From the IMG/VR virus record IMGVR_UViG_2657245091_000012: a stretch of 22,164 nucleotides of DNA; one strand, 5' to 3'. The notes under the pieces were generated by a model. The model had not been told where the DNA came from, did no database searches, and worked only from the letters and a program-made list of their open reading frames with translations. Positions 1 through 14,622 of the stretch are shown piece by piece. Each line of letters begins with the position of its first letter. The stretch's first letter is position 1. The position numbers and the translations under genes were made by a program. This stretch comes from a virus. Its lineage: Duplodnaviria > Heunggongvirae > Uroviricota > Caudoviricetes.

Positions 1-256
1 CGTCGTTTTTAATCGACTCGACGTACTCGATATCTTCTTTTACCGGGTTAGTGTCGTCGAAACGCAGGTTGCACTGGCCTTTATAGTCCTGGGCGATCCC
101 GAAGTTCAGGCAGATAGATTTCGCATGACCAATATGCAGATAGCCATTCGGTTCCGGCGGGAAACGGGTATGTACTGTGGTGTGCTTACCACTGGCCAGA
201 TCTTCATCGATGATCTGACGAATAAAGTTAGTCGGGCGGGCTTCTGCCTCACTCAT
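1..256 (-). CDS. glnS: glutaminyl-tRNA synthetase, 5' portion (about 85 N-terminal codons; gene continues past the left edge)
   Basis: Reverse-complement translation from the ATG at 254-256 reads [85 protein letters not shown], which I recognise as the enterobacterial GlnRS N-terminus including the class I HIGH motif. Not in the ORF track because it runs off the window edge. Confidence 0.9.
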
Positions 257-524: not shown

Positions 525-812
525 TTATTTTGCTTCCTCAGACTCCGCTAACATGAGGATAGCATGGCGGATCATATTCAATTTGCTGCGATTATGCTTT
601 TTACTTAACGCATCAAGTACTTGGTACTCGTATTCATTGAAACCAACACGAATAGATTTAAAATCACGTGGAGCGTCCTTATCGAGCACTTTGTTGTCTT
701 CTGGTTGCTCACCCGGCACCAAATCAGCCTTACTGGCAAAATCCTCAATTCGGCGTTCAAGATCGGGGTCTTTTACTTCGGGGGCTTTTACCGATTTACG
801 AGGCTTAATCAC
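525..812 (-). CDS. parG: small partition protein, ParG-like (ribbon-helix-helix centromere-binding protein); GTG start
   Basis: 95-aa ORF directly downstream of and overlapping the ParA-like gene by 8 nt; basic N-terminus and C-terminal RHH-like segment (RVGFNEYEYQVLDALSKKHNRSKLNMIRHAI) resembling TP228 ParG; AGGAG about 7 nt upstream of the GTG. Confidence 0.65.
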   Translation of the reverse strand: MIKPRKSVKAPEVKDPDLERRIEDFASKADLVPGEQPEDNKVLDKDAPRDFKSIRVGFNEYEYQVLDALSKKHNRSKLNMIRHAILMLAESEEAK

Positions 813-1446
813 TTAATAACTCCTTAACCAACATCTGGATTTCACCTTTAGCTTTCCCGTTGTCCATCTCAACAACGCCCTTCCCTTCAGCCATGCAATC
901 GCGGTAAACCTTACGATCACGAATGATGGTTTTCAGCAACTTCAGTTGCGGATATTCAGCCAAGTACTCTTTGGCCTCATTGGTTTCATTCACAACCGGA
1001 TTGGATGGGGCCATTGTTAAGACTGCGAACGCCTTAATGCTAGGATTAGGCATCAGGTCCAAAGCCTCTTCAAACACTTCAACAAAGTGTGCCAGCGTGT
1101 CTAAATCTGGTTGAGATGGTCTGAATGGGACCAACACAATATCTGCAGCGGTTATGCCTGTACGCATCTCTTTGCTATCGCGCCCGGCTGTATCAACAAC
1201 TACAAATTCATAACGCTTATCCAGATCGAGAAGTGTTTCTCGAATATTACCAAACTTCTGGACACAATGAATTACAGGAGAAACCTCTGCCGTGTTACGG
1301 TCAGCTGCCCAGCGGGCAGCTGTTCCTTGCTTGTCTGCATCTAGTAACACTACATCCTTATTTGCGCGGGCAAGCTCCGCACAGATGTTTACGCTTGTGG
1401 TTGATTTTCCACAGCCACCTTTTTGGCTGACTACCAATATAATCAT
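805..1446 (-). CDS. parA: ParA/ParF-like small Walker-type partition ATPase (type Ib)
   Basis: Deviant Walker A KGGCGKST near the N-terminus, overall size (about 213 aa) and layout like ParF/Soj. The track's start at 1476 is a TTG; the ATG at 1444-1446 (MIILVVSQKGG...) with GAGGAA upstream is more plausible. Confidence 0.85.
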   Translation of the reverse strand: MIILVVSQKGGCGKSTTSVNICAELARANKDVVLLDADKQGTAARWAADRNTAEVSPVIHCVQKFGNIRETLLDLDKRYEFVVVDTAGRDSKEMRTGITAADIVLVPFRPSQPDLDTLAHFVEVFEEALDLMPNPSIKAFAVLTMAPSNPVVNETNEAKEYLAEYPQLKLLKTIIRDRKVYRDCMAEGKGVVEMDNGKAKGEIQMLVKELLSD

Positions 1447-1690
1447 ATCCGTTCCTCGGTGTGATTTTGGTATCAAAACGGTTCCAGATAAGAGCCTTTT
1501 TGATGCGGGACAGGCTCTATAATGGAGTCATTAATGTTTGGCAAAGTATAACATCAATCAGACCAAATACACCTTATATTGCATCCTATTTAACACGAAA
1601 TCAGCCCAAAATTGGAACCAGATACAAAATAACCCCATAACAGCACCTAAGTGGTACCAAACAAACACTAATTAGACACCATTAAGGCAT

Positions 1691-1713
1691 AAAAAAGGCT
1701 GCAATTTGCAGCC
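1691..1713 (-). terminator. rho-independent terminator downstream of parR (7-bp GC-rich stem ggctgca/tgcagcc, 3-nt loop, followed on the minus strand by a T6 run)
   Basis: Plus strand reads aaaaaa-ggctgca-att-tgcagcc; on the minus strand the hairpin is followed by TTTTTT; sits about 20 nt past the parR stop. Confidence 0.55.
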
Positions 1714-1733
1714 TTAAACCAGCACATCTTCTG

Positions 1734-2072
1734 TCAATCAGGTAGAGAGTCAGCTAGATTGCGCGCCGACGCGCTTTTGGCTACAAATTGCTCCTTCACT
1801 GGCTCAATGGAGGCAGGGCGCTCCTCAACCGCAGCTGGTAGTTCCAGGAAGGATGCCAGCATTTTTCGGATCAGCTCCGGGTTATTGTCTTCGGTCAGCA
1901 GGGAAGCCAGTAATCCTGGAAGCCTGCTATCGACTTCTCCCAGCGCAAGCCCTGCCAACAATGCAGTTCTTGCCATATCGCTATGTTTTTTTATCTTCTC
2001 GCTCGCCGCCTTTTCATTGGCATAAGCCTCTGGGCGAAGATAAATCATCACTTTCTTACGTTCCTGAGACAT
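1734..2072 (-). CDS. parR: ParR-like centromere-binding adaptor of a type II (ParMRC) partition system
   Basis: Segment ALLAGLALGEVDSRLPGLLASLLTEDNNPELIRKMLASFLE parallels R1 ParR as I recall it; immediately downstream of parM; start probably the second ATG (2072), which has GAGG at good spacing. Confidence 0.7.
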   Translation of the reverse strand: MSQERKKVMIYLRPEAYANEKAASEKIKKHSDMARTALLAGLALGEVDSRLPGLLASLLTEDNNPELIRKMLASFLELPAAVEERPASIEPVKEQFVAKSASARNLADSLPD

Positions 2073-2084
2073 GGACATACCTCG

Positions 2085-3041
2085 TTAACCGATTGCTTTC
2101 AGGCCATGAACAAGAGCAAGTTGCGGGTCATCCGCCACGAAGAAACGGTCATCACGAATATTAACTTGCACGCGAATTGCATCTGCCACCAGCGGTGCGC
2201 CACCACCGATCACCATGACATGCGTATATCCTTTAAAGTCGCCAATCACATCAAGAACGCGGGTACGCAGACGGTCAATGCTTGCGGCAATGGCCTTTTT
2301 CACATCACCAATCGCTGATGGGTCATTGATATTGTCGTTCAGATAATCTTCATCGTGGCGGTTAATAATGAGCTGATCCACATTGTAATTTGACGTTTCG
2401 GTATTGGCCCTTGCAAGTGCTTGCCTTACTTCCCTGGTGACCAAGGATACACCAAGATTCGAATCGCCAAAAACACGGGAAACTGCCGTCATTTGTCCAG
2501 CGACCATTGAAACATCAAGGGTAGTTCCACCCAAATCGACGATAAGAACAGAGTGGGCAGGGTTCAGATTGTCGCACAGGCTAATTCCCGCCGGGATAGA
2601 CTCCGGGCGTACCGTAACTTTCTTAATAGTGAATACATTGCCTTTATTCAGCGTGACGGGGCGCATAAGACTGGCTTTCTTGCGCTCGATGTTATCGAGA
2701 TTGTATTGCGCGTCGTCGTCGTAAAACTCTGCCAGAGGCAGCGTGACCACAATTTCTACTTCCTGCGGCTCAATACCGCTTGTCAGCAGGGCATGGTGAA
2801 CAGCCAGGACGTTAAGCGGGCTGTATTGCCATTCCACATTATTCGTCGGCAGAACATCTGGCGATATCAAGTCGTATGAATACTTTTCGTCGTCAATGAC
2901 ATAGTTAAACGGCTTGCCCGCACCAAATGTTGCTGACCATCCGCGCTTAAAGCTGTTAGGGCTGATGTGAGTGCGAGTTTCCCCGTCGTGCTCCCACAGC
3001 ATTTTGATATTGGTTGAACCATCATCGATAAAAATGCGCAT
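2085..3041 (-). CDS. parM: ParM actin-like partition ATPase (StbA/ParM family)
   Basis: N-terminus MRIFIDDGSTNIKMLW, then ISPNSFKRGW, VHHALLTSG, ESIPAG, LIVDLGGTTLDVS, GDSNLGVSLV and YTHVMVIGGGA closely parallel R1 ParM. The track start at 3065 is a GTG; the ATG at 3041 with upstream GGAG matches the ParM N-terminus. Confidence 0.9.
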   Translation of the reverse strand: MRIFIDDGSTNIKMLWEHDGETRTHISPNSFKRGWSATFGAGKPFNYVIDDEKYSYDLISPDVLPTNNVEWQYSPLNVLAVHHALLTSGIEPQEVEIVVTLPLAEFYDDDAQYNLDNIERKKASLMRPVTLNKGNVFTIKKVTVRPESIPAGISLCDNLNPAHSVLIVDLGGTTLDVSMVAGQMTAVSRVFGDSNLGVSLVTREVRQALARANTETSNYNVDQLIINRHDEDYLNDNINDPSAIGDVKKAIAASIDRLRTRVLDVIGDFKGYTHVMVIGGGAPLVADAIRVQVNIRDDRFFVADDPQLALVHGLKAIG

Positions 3042-3065
3042 CTTCTTGCTCCACTTCTGAGACAC

Positions 3066-3232
3066 ATTTGAGAATCAAAATGTAATTTTAAAAGAGAAGC
3101 ACCCAAAAATCCACACCAAACGAGATAAAAAAGAGCGCTTGTTGAGTTTATTTTGAGAATATCTTAATCACCCACTGAATGATGGTCTGATGGTGAGATT
3201 TATTTGAGAATGAATTGAGAATACAAAAATAT
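3066..3232. repeat. candidate parC-like centromere: at least five direct copies of TTGAGAAT-like motif upstream of parM
   Basis: tttgagaat at 3067-3075, 3152-3160 and 3213-3221, ttgagaat again at 3225-3232, and variants gttgagttt (3141-3149) and ggtgagatt (3201-3209), in the AT-rich leader between parM and the next gene. Confidence 0.45.
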
Positions 3233-3307
3233 TCCGAAATTTAACTCTCCGTTTGAATGACGAAATAACAAAGTGATGACAATAGGAGGATAACCAGGAG
3301 GTGAAGA

Positions 3308-3592
3308 ATGAGCGCAATAGCCACCAGCGACACCCTTTGTTCTGGTCACGGAGGATTTCCGCCGCGACTGGTAGCTGAAACCGTTCCCTGGTTCACCGTT
3401 AACGGTAAGCCAGTTGTTGTAGATGGTGCCATGTTTCCCAGTCACACTGACGGTAACAGTGCACATCCAGGGGCAGCTGTATCGACGCGAGTATGGTTTT
3501 CGATAGGTGGAAAGGGAGTTGTCTGTGTAGGCGATCCGCTTTCTTGTGGTTCTGTTATCGCCAACGGCGAGGATATTTTTCAGGTTGCATAA
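3308..3592 (+). CDS. PAAR-like repeat protein (putative tail spike tip)
   Basis: 94 aa with repeated Gly/His/Cys-rich segments typical of PAAR domains (CSGHGGFPP, VNGKPVVVDGAMFPSHTDG, IGGKGVVCVGDPLSCGSVIANG); strong SD aggagg upstream of the ATG. Confidence 0.65.
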   Translation: MSAIATSDTLCSGHGGFPPRLVAETVPWFTVNGKPVVVDGAMFPSHTDGNSAHPGAAVSTRVWFSIGGKGVVCVGDPLSCGSVIANGEDIFQVA

Positions 3593-4398
3593 TGCTTGAT
3601 TCAATAGGTGAAGTTAAAGCCTTCAAAATTCTGTCAGATGCCGGTATCTCTACACCAGAATCTATAACCATAAGCCGGGCAGCTTCTGTAAAAGCCTCAT
3701 CGCTCGCCAGCGCCATACAGGGAATAGTTCACGCCGATAAAACCTATCCTGATTCTGTTTCGGCCTGGACTACTCAATTGCTTGGCTTTTCTGAACAGCT
3801 CAATGAGGCCAGCAAAGCGTCTTCATTACTGGCTGATTCTCTTTCCCCATACACCAAGCCATCAGAGCTGTTACAGATGAAGATTGGCTGGGAATGCTAC
3901 GCAAAAGGTAACGAGCTGACCCCCATACCTGCTTTCGCCCTTGTTGAGGGAATGGGGAATGTTTCCATTCCGCAATCTCTAACGGACGCATTGACGGCGC
4001 TAAAACTTGATGCTCTGAAAACCGCCATGAACGCCATTAACGCAAAAATTGAAGCTGCCGGAAGTGCTGGTGGTGGTGAAAGCGATGGTGGACAGGGTGG
4101 TGCTGGGGGCGCTCAGGCTCCAGTCATTACTCAGGATGAAATTGATGCTTTACGGGAAGCAGTGACAGCCGCCGAAGTTTTACTCTCCGAAATTAACTCA
4201 GCAAGTGAGGGTGTCGTAGCCCTTACAGGTCGCATTAAAACGTCAACCACTCAGGCAACCAAAGGTTTAGAGAACGCTGTCGCCATCACGTTAACTGGTT
4301 CTCTACTGGATAATGCAGTAATGAGTCCGGCAATCAGTTTAATCATGCCACAAGGCGTTATCGATGCGCTCCAAAAGAACACCAAAAAGGAACCATAG
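3592..4398 (+). CDS. hypothetical protein (268 aa), translationally coupled to the PAAR-like gene (TAATG overlap); Ala/Ser-rich with an internal Gly-rich linker
   Basis: ATG at 3592-3594 overlaps the TAA of the PAAR gene in the same frame as track ORF 3493..4398; the longer track start would overlap the PAAR gene. No recognisable catalytic motif. Confidence 0.5.
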   Translation: MLDSIGEVKAFKILSDAGISTPESITISRAASVKASSLASAIQGIVHADKTYPDSVSAWTTQLLGFSEQLNEASKASSLLADSLSPYTKPSELLQMKIGWECYAKGNELTPIPAFALVEGMGNVSIPQSLTDALTALKLDALKTAMNAINAKIEAAGSAGGGESDGGQGGAGGAQAPVITQDEIDALREAVTAAEVLLSEINSASEGVVALTGRIKTSTTQATKGLENAVAITLTGSLLDNAVMSPAISLIMPQGVIDALQKNTKKEP

Positions 4399-4453
4399 AA
4401 ACACCACTTAGGCACACAATAGGATGTAAATTGGTACATGTTTAACACCAAAA

Positions 4454-4927
4454 ATGAACCTGAAGAGGATGGTTTTGAAAAAGATAATTTTGATTGTAAT
4501 TGCGCTTTTAGCCATTTCTGGAATTTACCGAACAACGACGGCAGTTATCGAACACATCAGGTATGTCCGATCGCTTGAAGACTCAAAATCACAACTGGAA
4601 AGCACGAACAACACGCTTTCTACCGCATTACAGTTAAGTGAGAACGCTCGCTCAGCCATGCTGACCGAAAACGAAAGAATTAAAGCACTGGAAAAGGAGT
4701 ACCAGCGCAAAACAGCAGAACTGAATGCCAACCTAATCAAACAACGAGAGGAAAGCCAGAATGAAATCACTCGCCTTGAAAATGCGTTACGCCGTGCTGG
4801 GATTAACGATGTGCGTGTGCCTGATGACGTTATCAGGATGCAGCGGGAACGGGCAAAAGCCATCAACCAGCGTGCCAGTGAAAATTACCGTAGAAGCCAC
4901 CAGCAAGCCGCAGGCAAATCTGATTGA
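4454..4927 (+). CDS. putative i-spanin (Rz-like): N-terminal transmembrane anchor plus coiled-coil periplasmic domain
   Basis: N-terminus MNLKRMVLKKIILIVIALLAISGIY is a signal-anchor-like TM segment; the rest is charged and heptad-like (ENERIKALEKEYQRKTAELNANLIKQREESQNEITRLENALRR). Confidence 0.55.
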   Translation: MNLKRMVLKKIILIVIALLAISGIYRTTTAVIEHIRYVRSLEDSKSQLESTNNTLSTALQLSENARSAMLTENERIKALEKEYQRKTAELNANLIKQREESQNEITRLENALRRAGINDVRVPDDVIRMQRERAKAINQRASENYRRSHQQAAGKSD

Positions 4928-5093
4928 TTACTCCCCTTGTTTAGTGCCAGAGGACACGCCAGTGCTGTTAAACAAGTATCCGACATACGCTGAACAGTTA
5001 TTCAGCACGATCGACGAATGCAACCAACGAAACGCACTGAATAACCAAAGAAACAGGGAGATTTGGGAAGGGAAGGGGGATCAAGGCTCCTGA
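4761..5093 (+). CDS. putative o-spanin (Rz1-like outer-membrane lipoprotein) starting inside the i-spanin gene in another frame
   Basis: Signal peptide with lipobox LSGC (MKSLALKMRYAVLGLTMCVCLMTLSGC); SD gaggaa 7 nt upstream of the ATG; overlaps the 3' end of the Rz-like gene by 167 nt, the classic overlapped spanin architecture. Confidence 0.55.
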   Translation: MKSLALKMRYAVLGLTMCVCLMTLSGCSGNGQKPSTSVPVKITVEATSKPQANLIDYSPCLVPEDTPVLLNKYPTYAEQLFSTIDECNQRNALNNQRNREIWEGKGDQGS

Positions 5094-5539
5094 AGCCAGA
5101 TGTCCTGGCTGTCAGCTTCTTCGAAACCGTGACAGACGTTAAAGTCACTCAAGCGATACTGACGCTGACGGCCTCTATTTCGCTCATGCCAATGCATATA
5201 TCCACCAGCAAATGCCAGCGGACAATCACTATAGTCTATGTAACCAATACCATTCCCCAAACGTGCTTCGCGCGCACCGGCTTTCCAGGACAGTAGAAAA
5301 GAGTCACGATCCGCCAGCATAACAACAAAATCGTCCGGATCTCCGATACAGTGAAGAATACCTGCCTTACATAACTGCTTGAGCGCTTTGGACTGGCTCA
5401 GGATGTCTTCTCCGTAATACTGAAAACAATCATCAACAACAGCGGGATAGCCTGCCGGGGGATTCAGGCTGGTTGGTATAGCTGACGCGATCGACAGCAT
5501 TAAGCGATATTGTGTTTTTGATGGGTTAACGTGGCTCAT
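5081..5539 (-). CDS. hypothetical protein (152 aa), second gene of a minus-strand two-gene unit
   Basis: ORF with ATG at 5537-5539 and AAGGGA SD; no recognisable motif; 3' end overlaps the o-spanin 3' end convergently. Confidence 0.4.
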   Translation of the reverse strand: MSHVNPSKTQYRLMLSIASAIPTSLNPPAGYPAVVDDCFQYYGEDILSQSKALKQLCKAGILHCIGDPDDFVVMLADRDSFLLSWKAGAREARLGNGIGYIDYSDCPLAFAGGYMHWHERNRGRQRQYRLSDFNVCHGFEEADSQDIWLQEP

Positions 5540-5555
5540 TTTGTCCCTTGTTTAC

Positions 5556-5948
5556 TCATTGTCGCCATGCGTTTTTTAACTCAGGAATATCTGCCATTTC
5601 AATTAACTTGCGAAGTCCAGCACTGACTTTCCCATTACCAACCATAGCAAGCCAATCTCTTACTGCTTTCGGCATGTAGAGCGTTGCTGTTACCGGCTCT
5701 TCAACCCTGGCAGGACATCCGCATACAGGCCATTTAATTGATTCCATAACTTCGGAGGCTGGGGTGAGGGCGGGGACATTGAGTATATCTCTACCAGAAA
5801 ACTGGATAACGATCCGTTCAGCTAGCGAGAGTATCTCACTTTCGGCAAGAATTGATGCCAACTGCGCCTCAACAAGAAAGCGACTTGTTGTGTTCAGAGA
5901 GTGGCTCTTAGCGCCATTTTTATACGAAACAAAGATTCGATACGCCAT
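5556..5948 (-). CDS. hypothetical protein (130 aa) with a C-terminal ribbon-helix-helix-like segment (possible DNA-binding regulator)
   Basis: C-terminal TATLYMPKAVRDWLAMVGNGKVSAGLRKLIEMA fits a beta-strand/helix/helix RHH pattern (Arc/MetJ/CopG-like); tightly spaced upstream of the 152-aa ORF. Confidence 0.4.
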   Translation of the reverse strand: MAYRIFVSYKNGAKSHSLNTTSRFLVEAQLASILAESEILSLAERIVIQFSGRDILNVPALTPASEVMESIKWPVCGCPARVEEPVTATLYMPKAVRDWLAMVGNGKVSAGLRKLIEMADIPELKNAWRQ

Positions 5949-6106: not shown

Positions 6107-7804
6107 GTGAATAAAAACATTCAGCCAGCTCGTGATCGCGAGCGCGAGATTATGAATCGGGCGGCAAGCGTCATGGCTATGACCGTCGATCCGACCACCG
6201 ATGCAGCAGGCAACATGATTGCTGACCAGGCAGTAATGATGGAAAACCTGGATAAAGCAATCCAGAAAGTGCCTATGTTTGAAGGCGTAAATCCAGAGGT
6301 CGCTCGTCAGATCACTGGTGGGTGGGCTATGTCTCTGCATGAGTATAAACGTCAACATGGTCATTACCCGGCAAGTGACATCCTGGCGAACGCACACATG
6401 GCTCTTGAACGCCTGATGACTGAATGTGCCAGTGATACCCATGAAGGCACGGGTAAGGCAATGTTTGAGTCTGTCGCGCAATCAATGCGTAGCTCTGACG
6501 GCGTAATGAAAGTTGCTCAATATGCTGCTCTAATTCTGCCTGCCTCTCTGGGCGCTGCTACCAGTGATGCCTGTACTTTTGTTCCTTGTGATCGTGACGA
6601 GTCAAATATTTATGAACTGGTCAACGTAGCAGGCACAAAATTCGGCACCTTCAAACAAGGTGACGAACTGAATATGCAGTCAGCTGGTGTTTATTCTCAA
6701 ATGAAGCGCCTGTATACCCTTTCCACTAAAGGGGATGGCAGCACCAAAACCTTCCAGTTCGACATCCAAAATTTTGAGGGACAATCCTGCCCGCTTCGCG
6801 CTGGTTATAACAAACTGCTGATCAACCGCAAACCGTCCAAAGTTGACGACGGCGATGGCAACCTTTATTTCAATGCTAAAGACAGCAAAGGTAATGCTTT
6901 CTCAGCGACTGCCAAAGTTGCCTATGACACTGGTGTCATTGACATTACATTTACCCAGGCTCCGCCAGAAGGTACTGAAATTGCTGTTCAGGTCGAAATT
7001 AACATCGAGCGCAATCCAAGCCTGATTCCTGTGATCAACCAGGCTATGCGTAAGTACGAAGTTCGTCCGTCCCAGTACGTAATTGCTTCCGAACACACGG
7101 TAATGTCCGCATCCGATTTAAGCCGTGAGCACGGCCTTGAATTAGCGGCACTTCAGTTCTCCGCGATGCGTAACTGGATCTCCCATGAAACCGACATCAT
7201 GCGTCTGCGCACCCTGGTATTCCATACCGTTTATGGTCGTGAATTTGATGTGGCTCTGCCGGAAGCTCAAAACTATGAGTCCTGGGTCGGCCTCCTGCGT
7301 CACGTAGTAAACGCTCTGTCTCAAGAAATGGCAAATCGTACCCTGACAACGGGTATTCGTGGCGGCTTTGCTGGTGGTGACGCCGCGAACTTCCTGCGCT
7401 CTCTGCCTCCACAGCACTTCCAGATCGCACCAGGTTACGTTCAGTCGCCGTATGTACAGTACATCGGCACCCTGTTTGGCACGATTCGTATTTACGAAGT
7501 GCCGCAACCTGTCTGTGAGCAATTCCAGGCACAGGGATATGACTTCGGGCTGGATGACATCTTCTTCTATGGGCGTGGCGAAGGCATCGGTAAAGCCGGT
7601 CTGATTGCTGGTGATGCAGTCCCAGCAATCCCTTACGTGCACGAAACCAATCCGTCTCTCGTTAACCGTACCACTCTCTGGGGCAGTGCCATCAACGAAG
7701 TACATCCTCGCAACGGTGAAAACTACTTCACCCGCCTGCGTCTGACTCGTGCCAAAGAAGGTGCTATCGACATGCTGACAGGCAAGGTTAACGAAAAAAA
7801 GTGA
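6107..7804 (+). CDS. major virion structural protein, probably the major capsid protein (565 aa); GTG start
   Basis: Large ORF at the head of the structural block, followed by a stem-loop and an Ig-like protein gene and then the sheath gene; the capsid call is inferred from position and size, not from a recognised motif. The start is uncertain (GTG at 6107 or ATG at 6152). Confidence 0.45.
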   Translation: MNKNIQPARDREREIMNRAASVMAMTVDPTTDAAGNMIADQAVMMENLDKAIQKVPMFEGVNPEVARQITGGWAMSLHEYKRQHGHYPASDILANAHMALERLMTECASDTHEGTGKAMFESVAQSMRSSDGVMKVAQYAALILPASLGAATSDACTFVPCDRDESNIYELVNVAGTKFGTFKQGDELNMQSAGVYSQMKRLYTLSTKGDGSTKTFQFDIQNFEGQSCPLRAGYNKLLINRKPSKVDDGDGNLYFNAKDSKGNAFSATAKVAYDTGVIDITFTQAPPEGTEIAVQVEINIERNPSLIPVINQAMRKYEVRPSQYVIASEHTVMSASDLSREHGLELAALQFSAMRNWISHETDIMRLRTLVFHTVYGREFDVALPEAQNYESWVGLLRHVVNALSQEMANRTLTTGIRGGFAGGDAANFLRSLPPQHFQIAPGYVQSPYVQYIGTLFGTIRIYEVPQPVCEQFQAQGYDFGLDDIFFYGRGEGIGKAGLIAGDAVPAIPYVHETNPSLVNRTTLWGSAINEVHPRNGENYFTRLRLTRAKEGAIDMLTGKVNEKK

Positions 7805-7951: not shown

Positions 7952-8230
7952 ATGGCAAACATTCAAGTAACTATCACGCCATCTGACGCAACAGACAAAT
8001 CTTTCACTGTTGAGTCAGATCACCCTGAAATTGTCCAGGTTGATGGCACTACATGTACCGCTCTTAAGGCCGGGCAGGCAGTGCTGACAATCAAAACAAA
8101 TGACGGCAATAAAACCGCACAGTGCACAGTCACTGTTAGGGAGGCACCTAAAAGCGTAAGCGCCGTCAGTGTTGAACCAACTACGAAAGAAGTAACCGTA
8201 GGCGACAACTTCACGGTAAGCGAATCCTGA
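7952..8230 (+). CDS. small Ig-like (Big_2-type) domain protein, possible capsid or tail decoration protein
   Basis: 92 aa; TITPSDATDKSFTVESDHPEIVQVDGTTCTALKAGQAVLTIKTNDGNKTAQCTVTV has the typical bacterial Ig-like group 2 pattern; SD caggag upstream of the ATG. Confidence 0.6.
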   Translation: MANIQVTITPSDATDKSFTVESDHPEIVQVDGTTCTALKAGQAVLTIKTNDGNKTAQCTVTVREAPKSVSAVSVEPTTKEVTVGDNFTVSES

Positions 8231-8297: not shown

Positions 8298-9956
8298 ATG
8301 AATAAGATTAGTTTTTCGGTAGGGCAGGCAGCTGGCGTTGCTGTAATGTCAGTAAATGCTGACGCTACCCTCACCAATACCAGCGGTGGCGCATCCGTCT
8401 TTGCTGGGCTTGTAATATCGCGTCGTGGCGCACCGGGTAAGGTACTGAAAGTTGACGATACGACTTATCAAAGCGTATTAGGTTCACCGATTCACCCTCG
8501 CCAGGGCGCGGCATTTGAACCATATCGCCACGTGGAGCGTGCAGTAAAAGGCGGCTCTGGATATGTCGTTCGAGTTTGCGCTAAAGACATGAAGGTGCCT
8601 GGTATTTCTGTTTCCGTTGTGGGCAAAGCAAAAGCGGCAAAGGCGAGCAAAGAACTTTCCGTTGAACCTACTGAAACCACAGTAAATCCAGGTGACACAT
8701 TAAGCGTTGGTGTTGCTTCAACTGCAACGACTCAATCAGTGTCCTTCACACCCAAAGAGACGCCCCAGATTAAAGGTGAAGAGAAGGCATTATTCTTCAT
8801 CAAAGATGGTGATGCATCTCAAAATCGCACGTTATCACTAACTCGCGATGATGAAGAAAGCGAACTCTTTACGCTGACGCTGAAAGAAAAACAAACCGAT
8901 GGGTCCATTGAGGTGCTGGAAAGCCACCAAGTGTCTTTCAATCCAGAAGGCACTAACGACATGGGCCAACCAGCATGGATTCCGACACTGCTTGAAAGCC
9001 AGTCCACTCGCATTGGTGCCGTACTGGCAGATAATGCAGAAGCATCCGCTGCTCAACTCATTTTTGAGGATGTAGCTTTTGAAGGTGGTACTGATGGAGA
9101 TCTGTCCGAAATTGACACTGAAGACTATCTGGAAGCATTAAAGGTTCTCGAAGCTTCAGAGGTTAATTACACCGCATTGCTGTCACTGGGTTGTTATGAC
9201 GCATCCGCCTTAGCCGCAATCAAAAAGCTGGCTGAAGATGTTCGCGTAGACATGTTCTATGACCTGAAGGGCAACCAGACACCTGAAAACGCTATTTCAG
9301 AAGCGAAAAGCCATAGTTTTGGCGGCTCACATCAACCAAGCCGTTACTACTTCCCGCTCTCCTGCCGAGATACCTTCACTGGGATGAATGTCGTCTATGG
9401 CATTAGTTGCGACGCATTCGTAGCAAAAGCAAAAGGGGTAGCGCTGGTACCGGATGTTGGTGGTTGGCATTACGCACCGGCAGGTATATCACGCGCGATT
9501 ATTGATCGACAGAACATTGCCCGAATTCCAAATATCGGTGCAGTTGATCGTGAAGCGTTCGTTCTTGCGCGCATTAATCCGGTTTCAGTTGCTGCTGATG
9601 GGTCCGTTTACATTGACGACTCTTTAACAACTTACAGCAAAAACAACTATCTGCGATTCCAGCATGTGTCTTCCTTGATGAACGCCATCGCCAGAGATTT
9701 CTATGAAGTAGCTCAGGCGATTAAGCACGAACCGGATGGCATTACCAAAGAAACGCTAATGAAAGCAATGACTGAATTGCTTGACCGTTACGTTGCAGCC
9801 GGTGCGCTGGTTACTCCACGTGACAAGTCCCAGGGTGAAGATCCATATGTTGTTCAGGTTGTCCAAAAGGACATCGATCTGTGGGAAGTGTCCTGGTCTG
9901 TTTGTCCGACCGGTACAGCTCGCCGAATCGTCGGTAAGCCAATTCTGATGCGCTGA
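8298..9956 (+). CDS. contractile tail sheath protein
   Basis: 552 aa; the C-terminal region (YLRFQHVSSLMNAIARDFYEVAQAIKHEPDGITKETLMKAMTELLDRYVAAGAL) matches the conserved sheath C-terminal pattern I recall from R-pyocin and P2-type sheaths (...VFEPND...FLRDQWRDGAL...); strong SD. Confidence 0.7.
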   Translation: MNKISFSVGQAAGVAVMSVNADATLTNTSGGASVFAGLVISRRGAPGKVLKVDDTTYQSVLGSPIHPRQGAAFEPYRHVERAVKGGSGYVVRVCAKDMKVPGISVSVVGKAKAAKASKELSVEPTETTVNPGDTLSVGVASTATTQSVSFTPKETPQIKGEEKALFFIKDGDASQNRTLSLTRDDEESELFTLTLKEKQTDGSIEVLESHQVSFNPEGTNDMGQPAWIPTLLESQSTRIGAVLADNAEASAAQLIFEDVAFEGGTDGDLSEIDTEDYLEALKVLEASEVNYTALLSLGCYDASALAAIKKLAEDVRVDMFYDLKGNQTPENAISEAKSHSFGGSHQPSRYYFPLSCRDTFTGMNVVYGISCDAFVAKAKGVALVPDVGGWHYAPAGISRAIIDRQNIARIPNIGAVDREAFVLARINPVSVAADGSVYIDDSLTTYSKNNYLRFQHVSSLMNAIARDFYEVAQAIKHEPDGITKETLMKAMTELLDRYVAAGALVTPRDKSQGEDPYVVQVVQKDIDLWEVSWSVCPTGTARRIVGKPILMR

Positions 9957-13290: not shown

Positions 13291-13585
13291 TTGAGGGCAT
13301 TTTTTACATCATCAATTCATCTGTAATGAAGGCATTCTTTACACATTTCAATAATATCAATCAGTTAACACAGTGAATGATAATAAAAAAGCGCAATAAG
13401 AATGCACGATACGCACGATATTGGTTGAGGGCGATTTTTACATAGTCCTTACATATCAATACGTTATATAAAAACACAACTTGCTAATAACAATATACAT
13501 GCAATTAAGATGTAAAAATTGCCCTCAATTGCCGATCGTTAAGGGCAAATTCTACACCTTGAGAGGGGTGTAAAAATTGCCCTTA
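13291..13585. repeat. iteron array downstream of repA (incC-like copy-control repeats), mixed orientation
   Basis: Copies of the GAGGGCA(A/T)TTTTTACA(T/C)C family at 13291-13310 (+), 13425-13444 (+), 13509-13528 (-), 13540-13558 (+, degenerate) and 13566-13585 (-); the last two form a near-palindrome overlapping the repA stop. Confidence 0.6.
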
Positions 13586-14338
13586 AGACTGCTGATAGGT
13601 AAATTTTATCCTGGTAACTTTGCCGCCTTCCGTCACCTCTGAGAAGACTATTTTCATTTTTGTATTTTTTTCAATCTCTGCTACAGCCTTCGTTAAAAAA
13701 CTTCTCTTAAATTCGGCATACCGCTGATAGCTTTTTGGTAACCCATAACGCTCCCGCATCCATTCGACGCCAAGTATGGCAAAGCCGCTTCCATCATCCT
13801 TCCTGTACTGGCATAAGGACTCATAAAGCCGCATAGAATAAGGATTTGTAAGGCGAGATACTTCGGTAAAATTCAGCCTTGTGAATCTCTTATCAAGCAG
13901 AGTAAAAAACGGCATGAGATATGGATTAAGATGAATAATGTAAGTCCCGCGCCGTGGTGAATAGGCATCCTTAATCATCCAAGGATAAGACTCATAACTG
14001 TCTTCTGATTCGGTCGATTCATCAGGGTTATATATCGTAACTTTCTTCTCGCTAAGCCCTGAAATGGCCTTACGAATATCCTTGCTGGCTTCAGCAGAGG
14101 GCAAATTATACATCTCTGCATATTCGTTGACCGTCAACTCACAGGCACCTGAACCAAGAACGCCATCCTTAGAAGCATAGCGAAGTCTTCCCACCACAAT
14201 AAACAACAGTCGCTTTTGGTCGCGAGTCAGGTGATAAGCAGCCTCCGTGATCTCATTGGCTTGTGCCAAACTACGACTAATAGGTGTCGCTGACTCAATC
14301 AGGCTGACGGCTTTTGCTGTTAATTCCGCTCTGTTCAT
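13583..14338 (-). CDS. repA: iteron-binding replication initiator, Rep_3 family, F RepE-like
   Basis: Strong similarity to F RepE as recalled (LTEAAYHLTRDQKR, SAEASKDIR, NPYSMRLYESLCQYRKDDGSGF, PKSYQRY). The track start (14371) is a TTG inside an iteron; the ATG at 14336-14338 (MNRAELTAK...) gives an N-terminus of RepE-like length. Confidence 0.9.
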   Translation of the reverse strand: MNRAELTAKAVSLIESATPISRSLAQANEITEAAYHLTRDQKRLLFIVVGRLRYASKDGVLGSGACELTVNEYAEMYNLPSAEASKDIRKAISGLSEKKVTIYNPDESTESEDSYESYPWMIKDAYSPRRGTYIIHLNPYLMPFFTLLDKRFTRLNFTEVSRLTNPYSMRLYESLCQYRKDDGSGFAILGVEWMRERYGLPKSYQRYAEFKRSFLTKAVAEIEKNTKMKIVFSEVTEGGKVTRIKFTYQQS

Positions 14339-14361
14339 AACCCTGTGTGATCCTTCAAATG

Positions 14362-14622
14362 GTGAGGGCAATTTTTACATCACTTTGAGGGCAATTACTA
14401 CACCTTTTGAGGGCAAATCTTACACCTTTTGAGGGCAAATCTTACACCGATCGTATTTAATTGAGGGCAAATCTTACACCAGCCTCCTCTACAGCCCGCG
14501 CCACTACTGGCTCCAGCGACGCCTAAAAAGGATCTAAAAAGGATTAAAAATGGAAAAAGGTTTATAAAAATACTCTGTGGATATGTGAGTAGCGTCACTT
14601 AAGGTGTAAAAATCACCCTCAA
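14362..14622. repeat. replication origin region: five direct 22-bp-spaced iterons (TTGAGGGCAAATCTTACACC), an AT-rich tract, a DnaA-box-like site and one inverted iteron
   Basis: Iterons at 14362-14381, 14384-14404, 14405-14426, 14427-14448 and 14461-14480; AT-rich tract 14521-14572 with repeated aaaaagga; tgtggatat at 14576-14584 is 8/9 to the DnaA box TGTGGATAA; inverted iteron variant at 14603-14622. Iteron sequence resembles F oriS iterons as recalled. Confidence 0.7.

Follow-up and report, generated by a model that had tools for sequence, protein, structure and literature searches.

A PAAR spike-tip gene and its upfB-like partner in a phage-plasmid of the P1/D6 lineage

When a gene for a tail-spike tip stands apart from the main block of tail genes and runs straight into a second gene, two questions arise: what the second protein does, and how the pair came to stand there. 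This arrangement occurs in the 22,164-nt stretch of DNA analysed here in full (hereafter, the window), which belongs to the Caudoviricetes record IMGVR_UViG_2657245091_000012 of the virus database IMG/VR and carries a gene for a 94-amino-acid (aa) PAAR-like protein followed by a gene for a 268-aa protein. The initial annotation of the window considered the latter unknown and left three options for its product, namely a spike accessory, a cargo or effector, or an unrecognised lysis protein. We identified the two genes as orthologues of upfC and upfB of phage P1, and their products probably form a PAAR tip with an attached helical tripod at the end of a D6-type tail spike.

Two genes related to upfC and upfB of phage P1

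The window exhibited 98.8% identity to Escherichia phage D6, a P1-like phage-plasmid, and one IMG/VR contig encoded a protein pair 100% identical to that of the window. In the D6 RefSeq record, the two genes appear as orf57 ("PAAR motif..., similar to P1 gene upfC") and orf56 ("similar to P1 gene upfB"). The label "unknown" for the 268-aa gene is out of date, given that the D6 GenBank record ties it to upfB. The gene identity and architecture of the pair are already known, from this annotation and from the P1 structure published in 2026. The pair and the elements that belong to it are the following:

3296..3302, + strand: Shine-Dalgarno sequence AGGAGGT of the PAAR gene, read from the sequence, with a 5-nt spacer to the ATG at 3308
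3308..3592, + strand: upfC orthologue, 94-aa open reading frame (ORF) with an ATG start and a TAA stop at 3590-3592
3590..3594, + strand: TAATG stop/start overlap, 1 nt, between the upfC-like and upfB-like genes
3592..4398, + strand: upfB orthologue, 268-aa ORF whose ATG begins with the A at 3592
4066..4119, + strand: codons of a flexible Gly-rich linker (residues ~159-176) that joins the N-terminal helical domain of the 268-aa protein to its long C-terminal helix

The 94-aa protein was 57% identical to P1 UpfC, and searches in the Protein Data Bank (PDB) matched its residues 1-93 to the solved P1 UpfC chain (9vyi_A) with an E value of 1.4e-35. It also matched T4 gp5.4 (5iv5, E 1.4e-5; 4ku0, E 1e-5) and, more weakly, 4jiv_D (E 0.017). 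The family phrog_281 ('PAAR motif') recognised it with an E value of 8e-29 and the Pfam family PAAR_motif (PF05488) with a borderline pass, at 27.2 bits for a cut-off of 27.0. In an alignment of 16 divergent PAAR homologues, the residues C11, H14, H46, H53, C73, and C80 were invariant. The metal site at the tip of solved PAAR proteins reportedly consists of three His and one Cys, and the six invariant positions would fit such a site in a PAAR cone. The PAAR call made by the initial annotation is borne out by the matches to the P1 and T4 structures and, as far as its sequence tells, the protein is a bona fide single-domain spike tip of the gp5.4 type. In fact, it shares with P1 UpfC and T4 gp5.4 the length of 94 aa, a single PAAR domain without extensions, and the same set of invariant His and Cys. 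In P1 (PDB 9vyi and the 9VZK baseplate; PMC12810830) and T4 (5iv5, 4ku0), one copy of this protein caps the gp5 β-helix, whereas the D6-type protein is known from genes. A tblastn search of the phage collection with the PAAR protein retrieved 388 records, those outside the P1/D6 group being mainly T4-like gp5.4 proteins with ~30% identity.

The relationship of the 268-aa protein to P1 UpfB is more distant. Profile comparison with hhalign, using as query a profile from 24 homologues of the 268-aa protein, aligned both over 258 columns (99.9%, E 4.6e-33, 27% identity), and tblastn recovered P1 UpfB with 27% identity over 98% of the query. The protein also matched phrog_1559, a family with no assigned function, with an E value of 8e-110. 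The two proteins resemble each other in length (268 aa and 262 aa in P1), in their all-α prediction, in a Gly/Ser-rich linker at the same position, and in several conserved islands (an N-terminal MLD/MLE...AF/AY, LLQ..IGW, M..IN, and a C-terminal P..V.D.L). Moreover, both genes occupy the same slot, after the PAAR gene and before the spanin genes. By these sequence comparisons, the 268-aa protein is a full-length UpfB orthologue. The initial annotation had named remote homology of this protein to a known tail fibre or assembly chaperone as an observation that would speak against its proposal, and a remote homology, to a known structural protein, is in effect what P1 UpfB provides. The D6-clade proteins differ from P1 UpfB, the structure of which is a fitted prediction, in their longer Gly-rich linker and more hydrophobic C-terminal segment.

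An AlphaFold2 model based on an alignment of 24 homologues (pLDDT 82.4, pTM 0.74) predicted an all-α-helical 268-aa protein, with ten helices and zero strands. The predicted layout comprises an N-terminal helical domain (residues ~5-158), a linker, a long helix (181-238), and two short C-terminal helices. This confident all-α model agrees with the description of UpfB as an α-helical protein (PMC13611949). The 268-aa protein is acidic (pI 4.65), soluble and, as the initial annotation had remarked, rich in Ala (14.6%) and Ser (10.8%), together with Leu (10.4%) and Gly (8.6%), and has a Gly-rich linker (residues ~155-176). Residues 160-173 of this linker had pLDDT values <50, indicative of predicted disorder, and the linker varies in length and is mostly missing in distant family members. 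The conserved islands of the family correspond to residues 1-14, Y52-P53, 90-107 (PSELLQMKIGWECYAKGN in this clade), M146..N150, 177-190, 222-230, and 247-260, and its variable regions to the long helices and the linker.

An exhaustive search with a hidden Markov model (HMM) among 1.84 billion representatives yielded a family of only 73 proteins. Its full-length members all had 240-265 aa, the shorter hits being apparent fragments, and the only exception to this uniformity was a long hit that is probably spurious. In the phage collection, UpfB homologues were found only in P1/D6-type records. No recognisable enzymatic motif had been noticed in the initial annotation, and the Pfam search was likewise blank for the 268-aa protein at E<=0.1; for 24 family members, it gave only noise at E<=10 and no match to any adaptor or toxin family. 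Neither Pfam, nor PHROGs, nor the fold searches revealed homology to a tail fibre or chaperone, the sole fibre chain found in the PDB having an E value of 1.6. The other PDB sequence matches (E 0.003-0.04) were spurious, being due to Gly-Ser linkers that hit the low-complexity Gly linker or to helical proteins that are unrelated, and a Foldseek search of the PDB with the UpfB model found nothing below E 0.001. We also looked for a transmembrane segment, a signal peptide, and a lipobox in the 268-aa protein, and saw none. The best 19-residue Kyte-Doolittle window scored 1.39 at a position that is not conserved, and the idea of a conserved membrane anchor, whether transmembrane or amphipathic, was rejected since the hydrophobic windows are not conserved in the family.

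A separate observation came from the Foldseek search of the UpfB model against BFVD, in which the top-ranked matches, albeit weak (E 1e-3 to 5e-2, TM 0.3-0.5), were DUF7217 proteins from unrelated large myophages (Pectobacterium phage Wc4, Serratia phage 3M, Salmonella phage 38, and Escherichia phage FEC14). We found neither a link between UpfB and DUF7217 at the sequence level nor literature on DUF7217.

Linkage, coupling, and expression of the pair

We compared 46 loci, which comprised the D6 and P1 records, 36 IMG/VR contigs, one GTDB genome, and seven contigs reached by exact-protein look-up. Single-protein scans of IMG/VR for the loci of the most distant UpfB family members found none, and the exact-protein look-ups recovered such loci. 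The PAAR gene was located directly 5' of the UpfB gene in 44 of the 46 loci, which spanned UpfB identities of 19-100% to the window protein. Adjacency is nevertheless not universal: in two loci of the most distant clade, L043 and L046, the PAAR and UpfB-like genes lie 1.5 kb and 5.4 kb apart, respectively.

The stop codon of the PAAR gene in the window does run into the 268-aa ORF as TAATG, with the coordinates and overlap first described, and the same 1-nt overlap (TAATG or TGATG) was present in 38 of the 41 loci in which we surveyed it. The exceptions were a 4-nt overlap (L004), a 1-nt gap (L038), and the 8-nt gap that distinguishes P1 from the D6-type loci. Among the loci recovered by later look-ups, the 1-nt overlap recurs in L047, and L045 resembles P1 with its gap of 8 nt. 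The PAAR gene has a Shine-Dalgarno sequence of its own, as listed above; the upfB-like start is preceded only by a weak AGGT (3582-3585), eight to ten bases 5' and within the upfC-like gene. This weak site, together with the TAATG overlap, makes translational coupling plausible, as had been proposed, and the overlap is conserved among related loci.

Both ORFs are genuine genes, maintained in >40 loci and under purifying selection. The dN/dS ratio was about 0.04-0.05 for the PAAR gene and, over the whole gene, 0.16-0.18 for the 268-aa gene, a purifying value for which we rejected positive selection on UpfB. UpfB has diverged two- to six-fold faster than its PAAR partner (e.g., 89% PAAR identity vs 59% UpfB identity and 53% vs 28%).

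The wider context of these loci bears on the position of the pair. All UpfB family members that we examined on long contigs were found within structural backbones similar to those of P1 and D6, in which the order hub (gene 6), spike (5), upfC, upfB, capsid (23), sheath (22), and gene 21 was conserved, with three junctions that received variable insertions. L043 has no gene between spike and PAAR, and L045 none between upfB and capsid, whereas D6-like and P1-like elements have the spanin genes after upfB and partition or replication genes in the other gaps. In the D6 record, the homologues of P1 genes 24, 6 (hub), and 5 (spike) are situated ~7.3 kb upstream of the PAAR gene, beyond the window (orf66 and orf67 being the gp5 and gp6 homologues). 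The interval from spike to PAAR contains hrdC, two methyltransferase genes, a glutaminyl-tRNA synthetase gene, a ParA-like gene, and the ParMR genes. Insertion of plasmid-maintenance and accessory genes into an ancestral order makes the pair look stranded "away from the tail block". This position, as the initial annotation gave it, is real, but the pair is a piece of the structural module split off by insertions.

The junction between the PAAR and UpfB-like genes was itself occupied by other genes in the two distant loci, with small unknown genes in L043 (3461-4820) and, in L046 (614-6008), an N6/N4 methyltransferase gene along with toxin-antitoxin genes of the ParDE and Phd types. These insertions suggest that the junction acts as an insertion hot spot.

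Upstream of the pair, we noticed a motif that may be relevant to its expression:

3263..3274, + strand: candidate shared, perhaps late, promoter element AAATAACAAAGT, which precedes the start codon of the PAAR gene by 45 nt

The corresponding 12-nt pattern, AAATMACAVAVY, which was defined post hoc after the sites had been seen, occurs three times in the window, always on the + strand, for a chance expectation of 0.22, and none of 100 shuffles reached three. The sites (3263, 6037, and 14668) are found just 5' of the upfC, gene 23, and pmgB-sit structural operons only. Related motifs are present 40-55 nt 5' of upfC in divergent D6-clade loci with otherwise different flanks. The shared motif suggests co-regulation of the pair with virion genes, and AAATMACAVAVY may be a late-promoter element of the D6 clade. 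A 9-bp inverted repeat that binds Lpa is mentioned in PMC10695390 and is a conceivable counterpart of the AAATCACAAA-type motif. A scan of positions 3000-5600 for consensus promoters and terminators gave nothing above chance. No terminator-like site was detected between 4398 and 4454, the interval that separates upfB from the i-spanin gene, which is probably included in the same transcript as the pair. As a side observation, P1 carries ATTGCTCTAATAAATAT 5' of upfC on the opposite strand (L002 5601-5617), and a counterpart was not seen in the window. This site presumably matches the operator consensus of the P1 C1 repressor, ATTGCTCTAATAAATTT, and we take it to serve, probably, the divergent uhr-hrdC-dmt genes.

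A putative spike tip with a tripod, and other explanations

What is reported for P1 provides the basis for interpreting the pair. HHpred predicted UpfC to be gp5.4-like (Gonzales et al. 2022, PMC9024508), and a recent cryo-electron microscopy (cryo-EM) study of P1 (2026, PMC12810830) built UpfC at atomic resolution as a monomeric tip on the trimeric gp5 spike and presented UpfB as a novel "tripod" that is anchored there. The authors of that study speculated that gp5, UpfC, and UpfB constitute a membrane-piercing apparatus. A later report described the tripod as three copies of helical UpfB and called its role unclear (PMC13611949). Since the 268-aa protein is an orthologue of UpfB, which has been reported as a tripod on the PAAR tip (PMC12810830), the spike accessory is the one of the three initial options that gains support.

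We infer by analogy that the D6-type assembly resembles that of P1, including its stoichiometry, and that it may have a role in membrane penetration. One 94-aa PAAR cone would cap the blunt end of the trimeric gp5 β-helical spike, and the all-helical 268-aa protein would bind this cone to produce a three-legged 'tripod' beyond the spike tip. Both proteins would be made from one, probably late, transcript, with the second gene translated by coupling through the 1-nt overlap. Upon contraction of the sheath, the spike, PAAR, and tripod would be the first to meet the outer membrane. The tripod would most likely condition this first contact, for instance if it probes the envelope or seats itself there, or if it opens and is lost during passage of the tip. 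The linkage of the PAAR and UpfB genes, their overlap, the small and uniform UpfB family, the gene order of the P1/D6 backbone, and the upstream motif shared with the capsid and tape-measure operons all count in favour of a tip bearing a tripod.

Several observations weigh against it. Deletion of upfC in P1 caused no plaquing defect, and LC-MS/MS of purified P1 virions missed UpfC, with the main text of that study silent on UpfB (PMC9024508). In a CRISPRi screen (PMC10695390), P1 upfB and upfC were both non-essential and their knockdown was also without plaquing defect. Thus, neither the deletion nor the knockdown provides a phenotype linking either protein to infection. UpfB itself was unresolved in the cryo-EM work (PMC12810830), where an AlphaFold3 trimer was fitted to medium-resolution density without a built atomic model, and its copy number is disputed, being given as 'three trimeric' in PMC12810830 and 'three copies' in PMC13611949. 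We consider the evidential basis of the published tripod assignment moderate rather than strong. Furthermore, D6-type UpfB is only 27% identical to its P1 counterpart, D6 is known from its genes, and the separation of the two genes in L043 and L046 loosens the linkage argument.

Some of these same observations would be expected if the 268-aa protein were an assembly factor or chaperone that loads the PAAR tip and is absent from the finished particle, the P1 density being something else. UpfB was not reported among the 27 P1 virion proteins detected by LC-MS/MS (PMC9024508), tight coupling to the gene of a small client is a frequent feature of chaperone-client pairs, and the P1 tripod was assigned only by the fit of a predicted model to medium-resolution density. 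However, the same LC-MS/MS analysis missed gp5, gp26, PmgA, and UpfC, all of them later built in the P1 map, so that the non-detection of UpfB is weak evidence, and the predicted UpfB trimer was reported to fit the density. In addition, T4-like PAAR proteins fold and load without an UpfB-like partner, as follows from the restriction of UpfB homologues to P1/D6-type records against 388 phage hits for the PAAR protein. We therefore consider an assembly factor unlikely. Quite improbable, in turn, is that the 268-aa protein is a payload carried on the PAAR tip and delivered to the host envelope or cytoplasm, for example to insert into the membrane for DNA passage or to modify the host. The cargo or effector option of the initial annotation loses ground in that no enzymatic or toxin domain was found in Pfam and the loci belong to P1/D6-like backbones, not to type VI secretion.

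A role as a lysis accessory working with the downstream spanins appears highly improbable. It could draw on the order upfC, upfB, Rz, Rz1, which is conserved in D6-like and P1-like elements, and on the lack of a terminator-like site between upfB and the i-spanin gene. Nevertheless, the protein showed no transmembrane segment, signal peptide, lipobox, or muralytic domain, nor any match to lysis families in PHROGs or Pfam, and UpfB is much more tightly linked to the PAAR gene than to the spanins. In L045, L043, and L046, the capsid gene directly follows the UpfB-like gene, without spanins. This makes the adjacency to spanins clade-specific and weakens the lysis explanation. The absence of membrane, signal, and lipobox features and the spanin-free loci of distant relatives leave little of the 'unrecognised lysis protein' once suggested.

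Comparison with known systems helps to delimit what is particular to the pair. The PAAR proteins of type VI secretion systems (PAAR-Rhs, DUF4123, DUF1795/Eag, DUF2169) likewise form a cone on a trimeric β-helical spike and have their PAAR bound by the product of the next gene. Unlike them, the pair has no secretion context, adaptor or effector domain, or immunity gene; its neighbours are partition, spanin, and virion genes, and the PAAR partner is encoded by a gene that is conserved within the structural module of a phage-plasmid lineage. T4-like phages differ in that their PAAR gene belongs to the gene 5 module and has no UpfB-like neighbour. T4 gp5.1 and the large tip proteins that take the place of gp5.4 in some Straboviridae (e.g., Helios gp203, RB43; PMC13611949) are similar in that they are additional proteins, helical in part, which have been proposed to lengthen or decorate the tip of the spike beyond a bare PAAR. 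We did not detect any sequence relationship with them, the complexes that they form are AlphaFold3 models only, and the gp203-type proteins replace PAAR and do not bind it.

The genes of the tip and its putative tripod represent a conserved, plausibly translationally coupled unit across the whole P1/D6 phage-plasmid lineage, and the tripod protein has changed several-fold faster than the tip protein. The tripod has no laboratory phenotype in P1, where both genes are dispensable for plaque formation, and the 27%-identical D6 UpfB offers a second system, as well as a list of conserved residues, with which to probe its function. A further possibility, which we regard as doubtful, is that the tripod is no passive ornament but a functional, releasable helical bundle borne by PAAR, which would come off or unfold when the tail fires and exert its action in the host envelope. 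It may then, for example, seat the tip on lipopolysaccharide, trigger or gate penetration, or insert into the membrane, and would be the phage counterpart of the cargo carried by PAAR in type VI systems. In that case, the weak fold matches to DUF7217 would hint at tip-borne helical proteins beyond the P1 lineage.

Neighbouring genes in the window

The pair is located between the ParMRC locus and the spanins, with the neighbours found as first described, and precedes the virion genes listed here:

1734..2078, - strand: ParR-like gene
2085..3065, - strand: ParM gene, divergent from the pair
4454..4927, + strand: i-spanin (Rz-like) gene, phrog_214 E 8e-16, N-terminal transmembrane segment
4761..5093, + strand: o-spanin (Rz1-like) gene, in another frame and overlapping the i-spanin gene, phrog_456 E 1e-5, lipobox LSGC
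6107..7804: major capsid gene (23)
8298..9956: sheath gene

The sheath gene, placed about 4.7 kb from the pair in the initial annotation, begins 3.9 kb beyond the end of the pair, or 5.0 kb from it when measured start to start. The order upfC, upfB, Rz, Rz1 in P1 is the same as in the window. The o-spanin also matched the Pfam family O_Spanin_T7 (E 0.01), below the cut-off of that family. The D6 record starts this protein (orf54) at the position equivalent to 4872 in the window, whereas the lipobox LSGC lies 5' of that start, at residues 24-27 of the longer ORF. The latter resembles P1 Rz1, which has the lipobox context LLTLSGC, and the signal peptide has probably been cut short in the public D6 annotation.

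Between the capsid and sheath genes (7952-8230), a 92-aa protein with a Big_2 Ig domain is encoded, which may be a decoration protein. The last 19 residues of this Ig-domain protein gave a match to sheath residues 120-138 that was weak (E 0.038), probably not meaningful, and dropped.

Two partition systems lie side by side on the minus strand (805-3065): a ParA-like ATPase (805..1476) with a small downstream gene (525..812), and the actin-type ParM/ParR system (1734..3065). The equivalent place in P1 is occupied by ParAB instead. Between parM and the PAAR gene, we observed four copies of TTTGAGAAT, one of them with a single mismatch, within 156 nt (3067-3222). The count of TTTGAGAAT over the window is not above chance and only its clustering stands out; the cluster is a candidate for the parC centromere repeats of the ParMR system.

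Further downstream, about five direct repeats of TTGAGGGCAAATCTTACACC (14383-14480) flank a RepA-like replication initiator gene (13583..14371, minus strand), the equivalent of D6 orf42. The gene and the repeats point to a plasmid origin inside the block of tail genes, between tub and pmgB-sit. Finally, the first 255 nt of the window (1-255, minus strand) correspond to the 3' end of a phage-borne glutaminyl-tRNA synthetase gene (D6 orf62), which a phage-plasmid would not usually carry.

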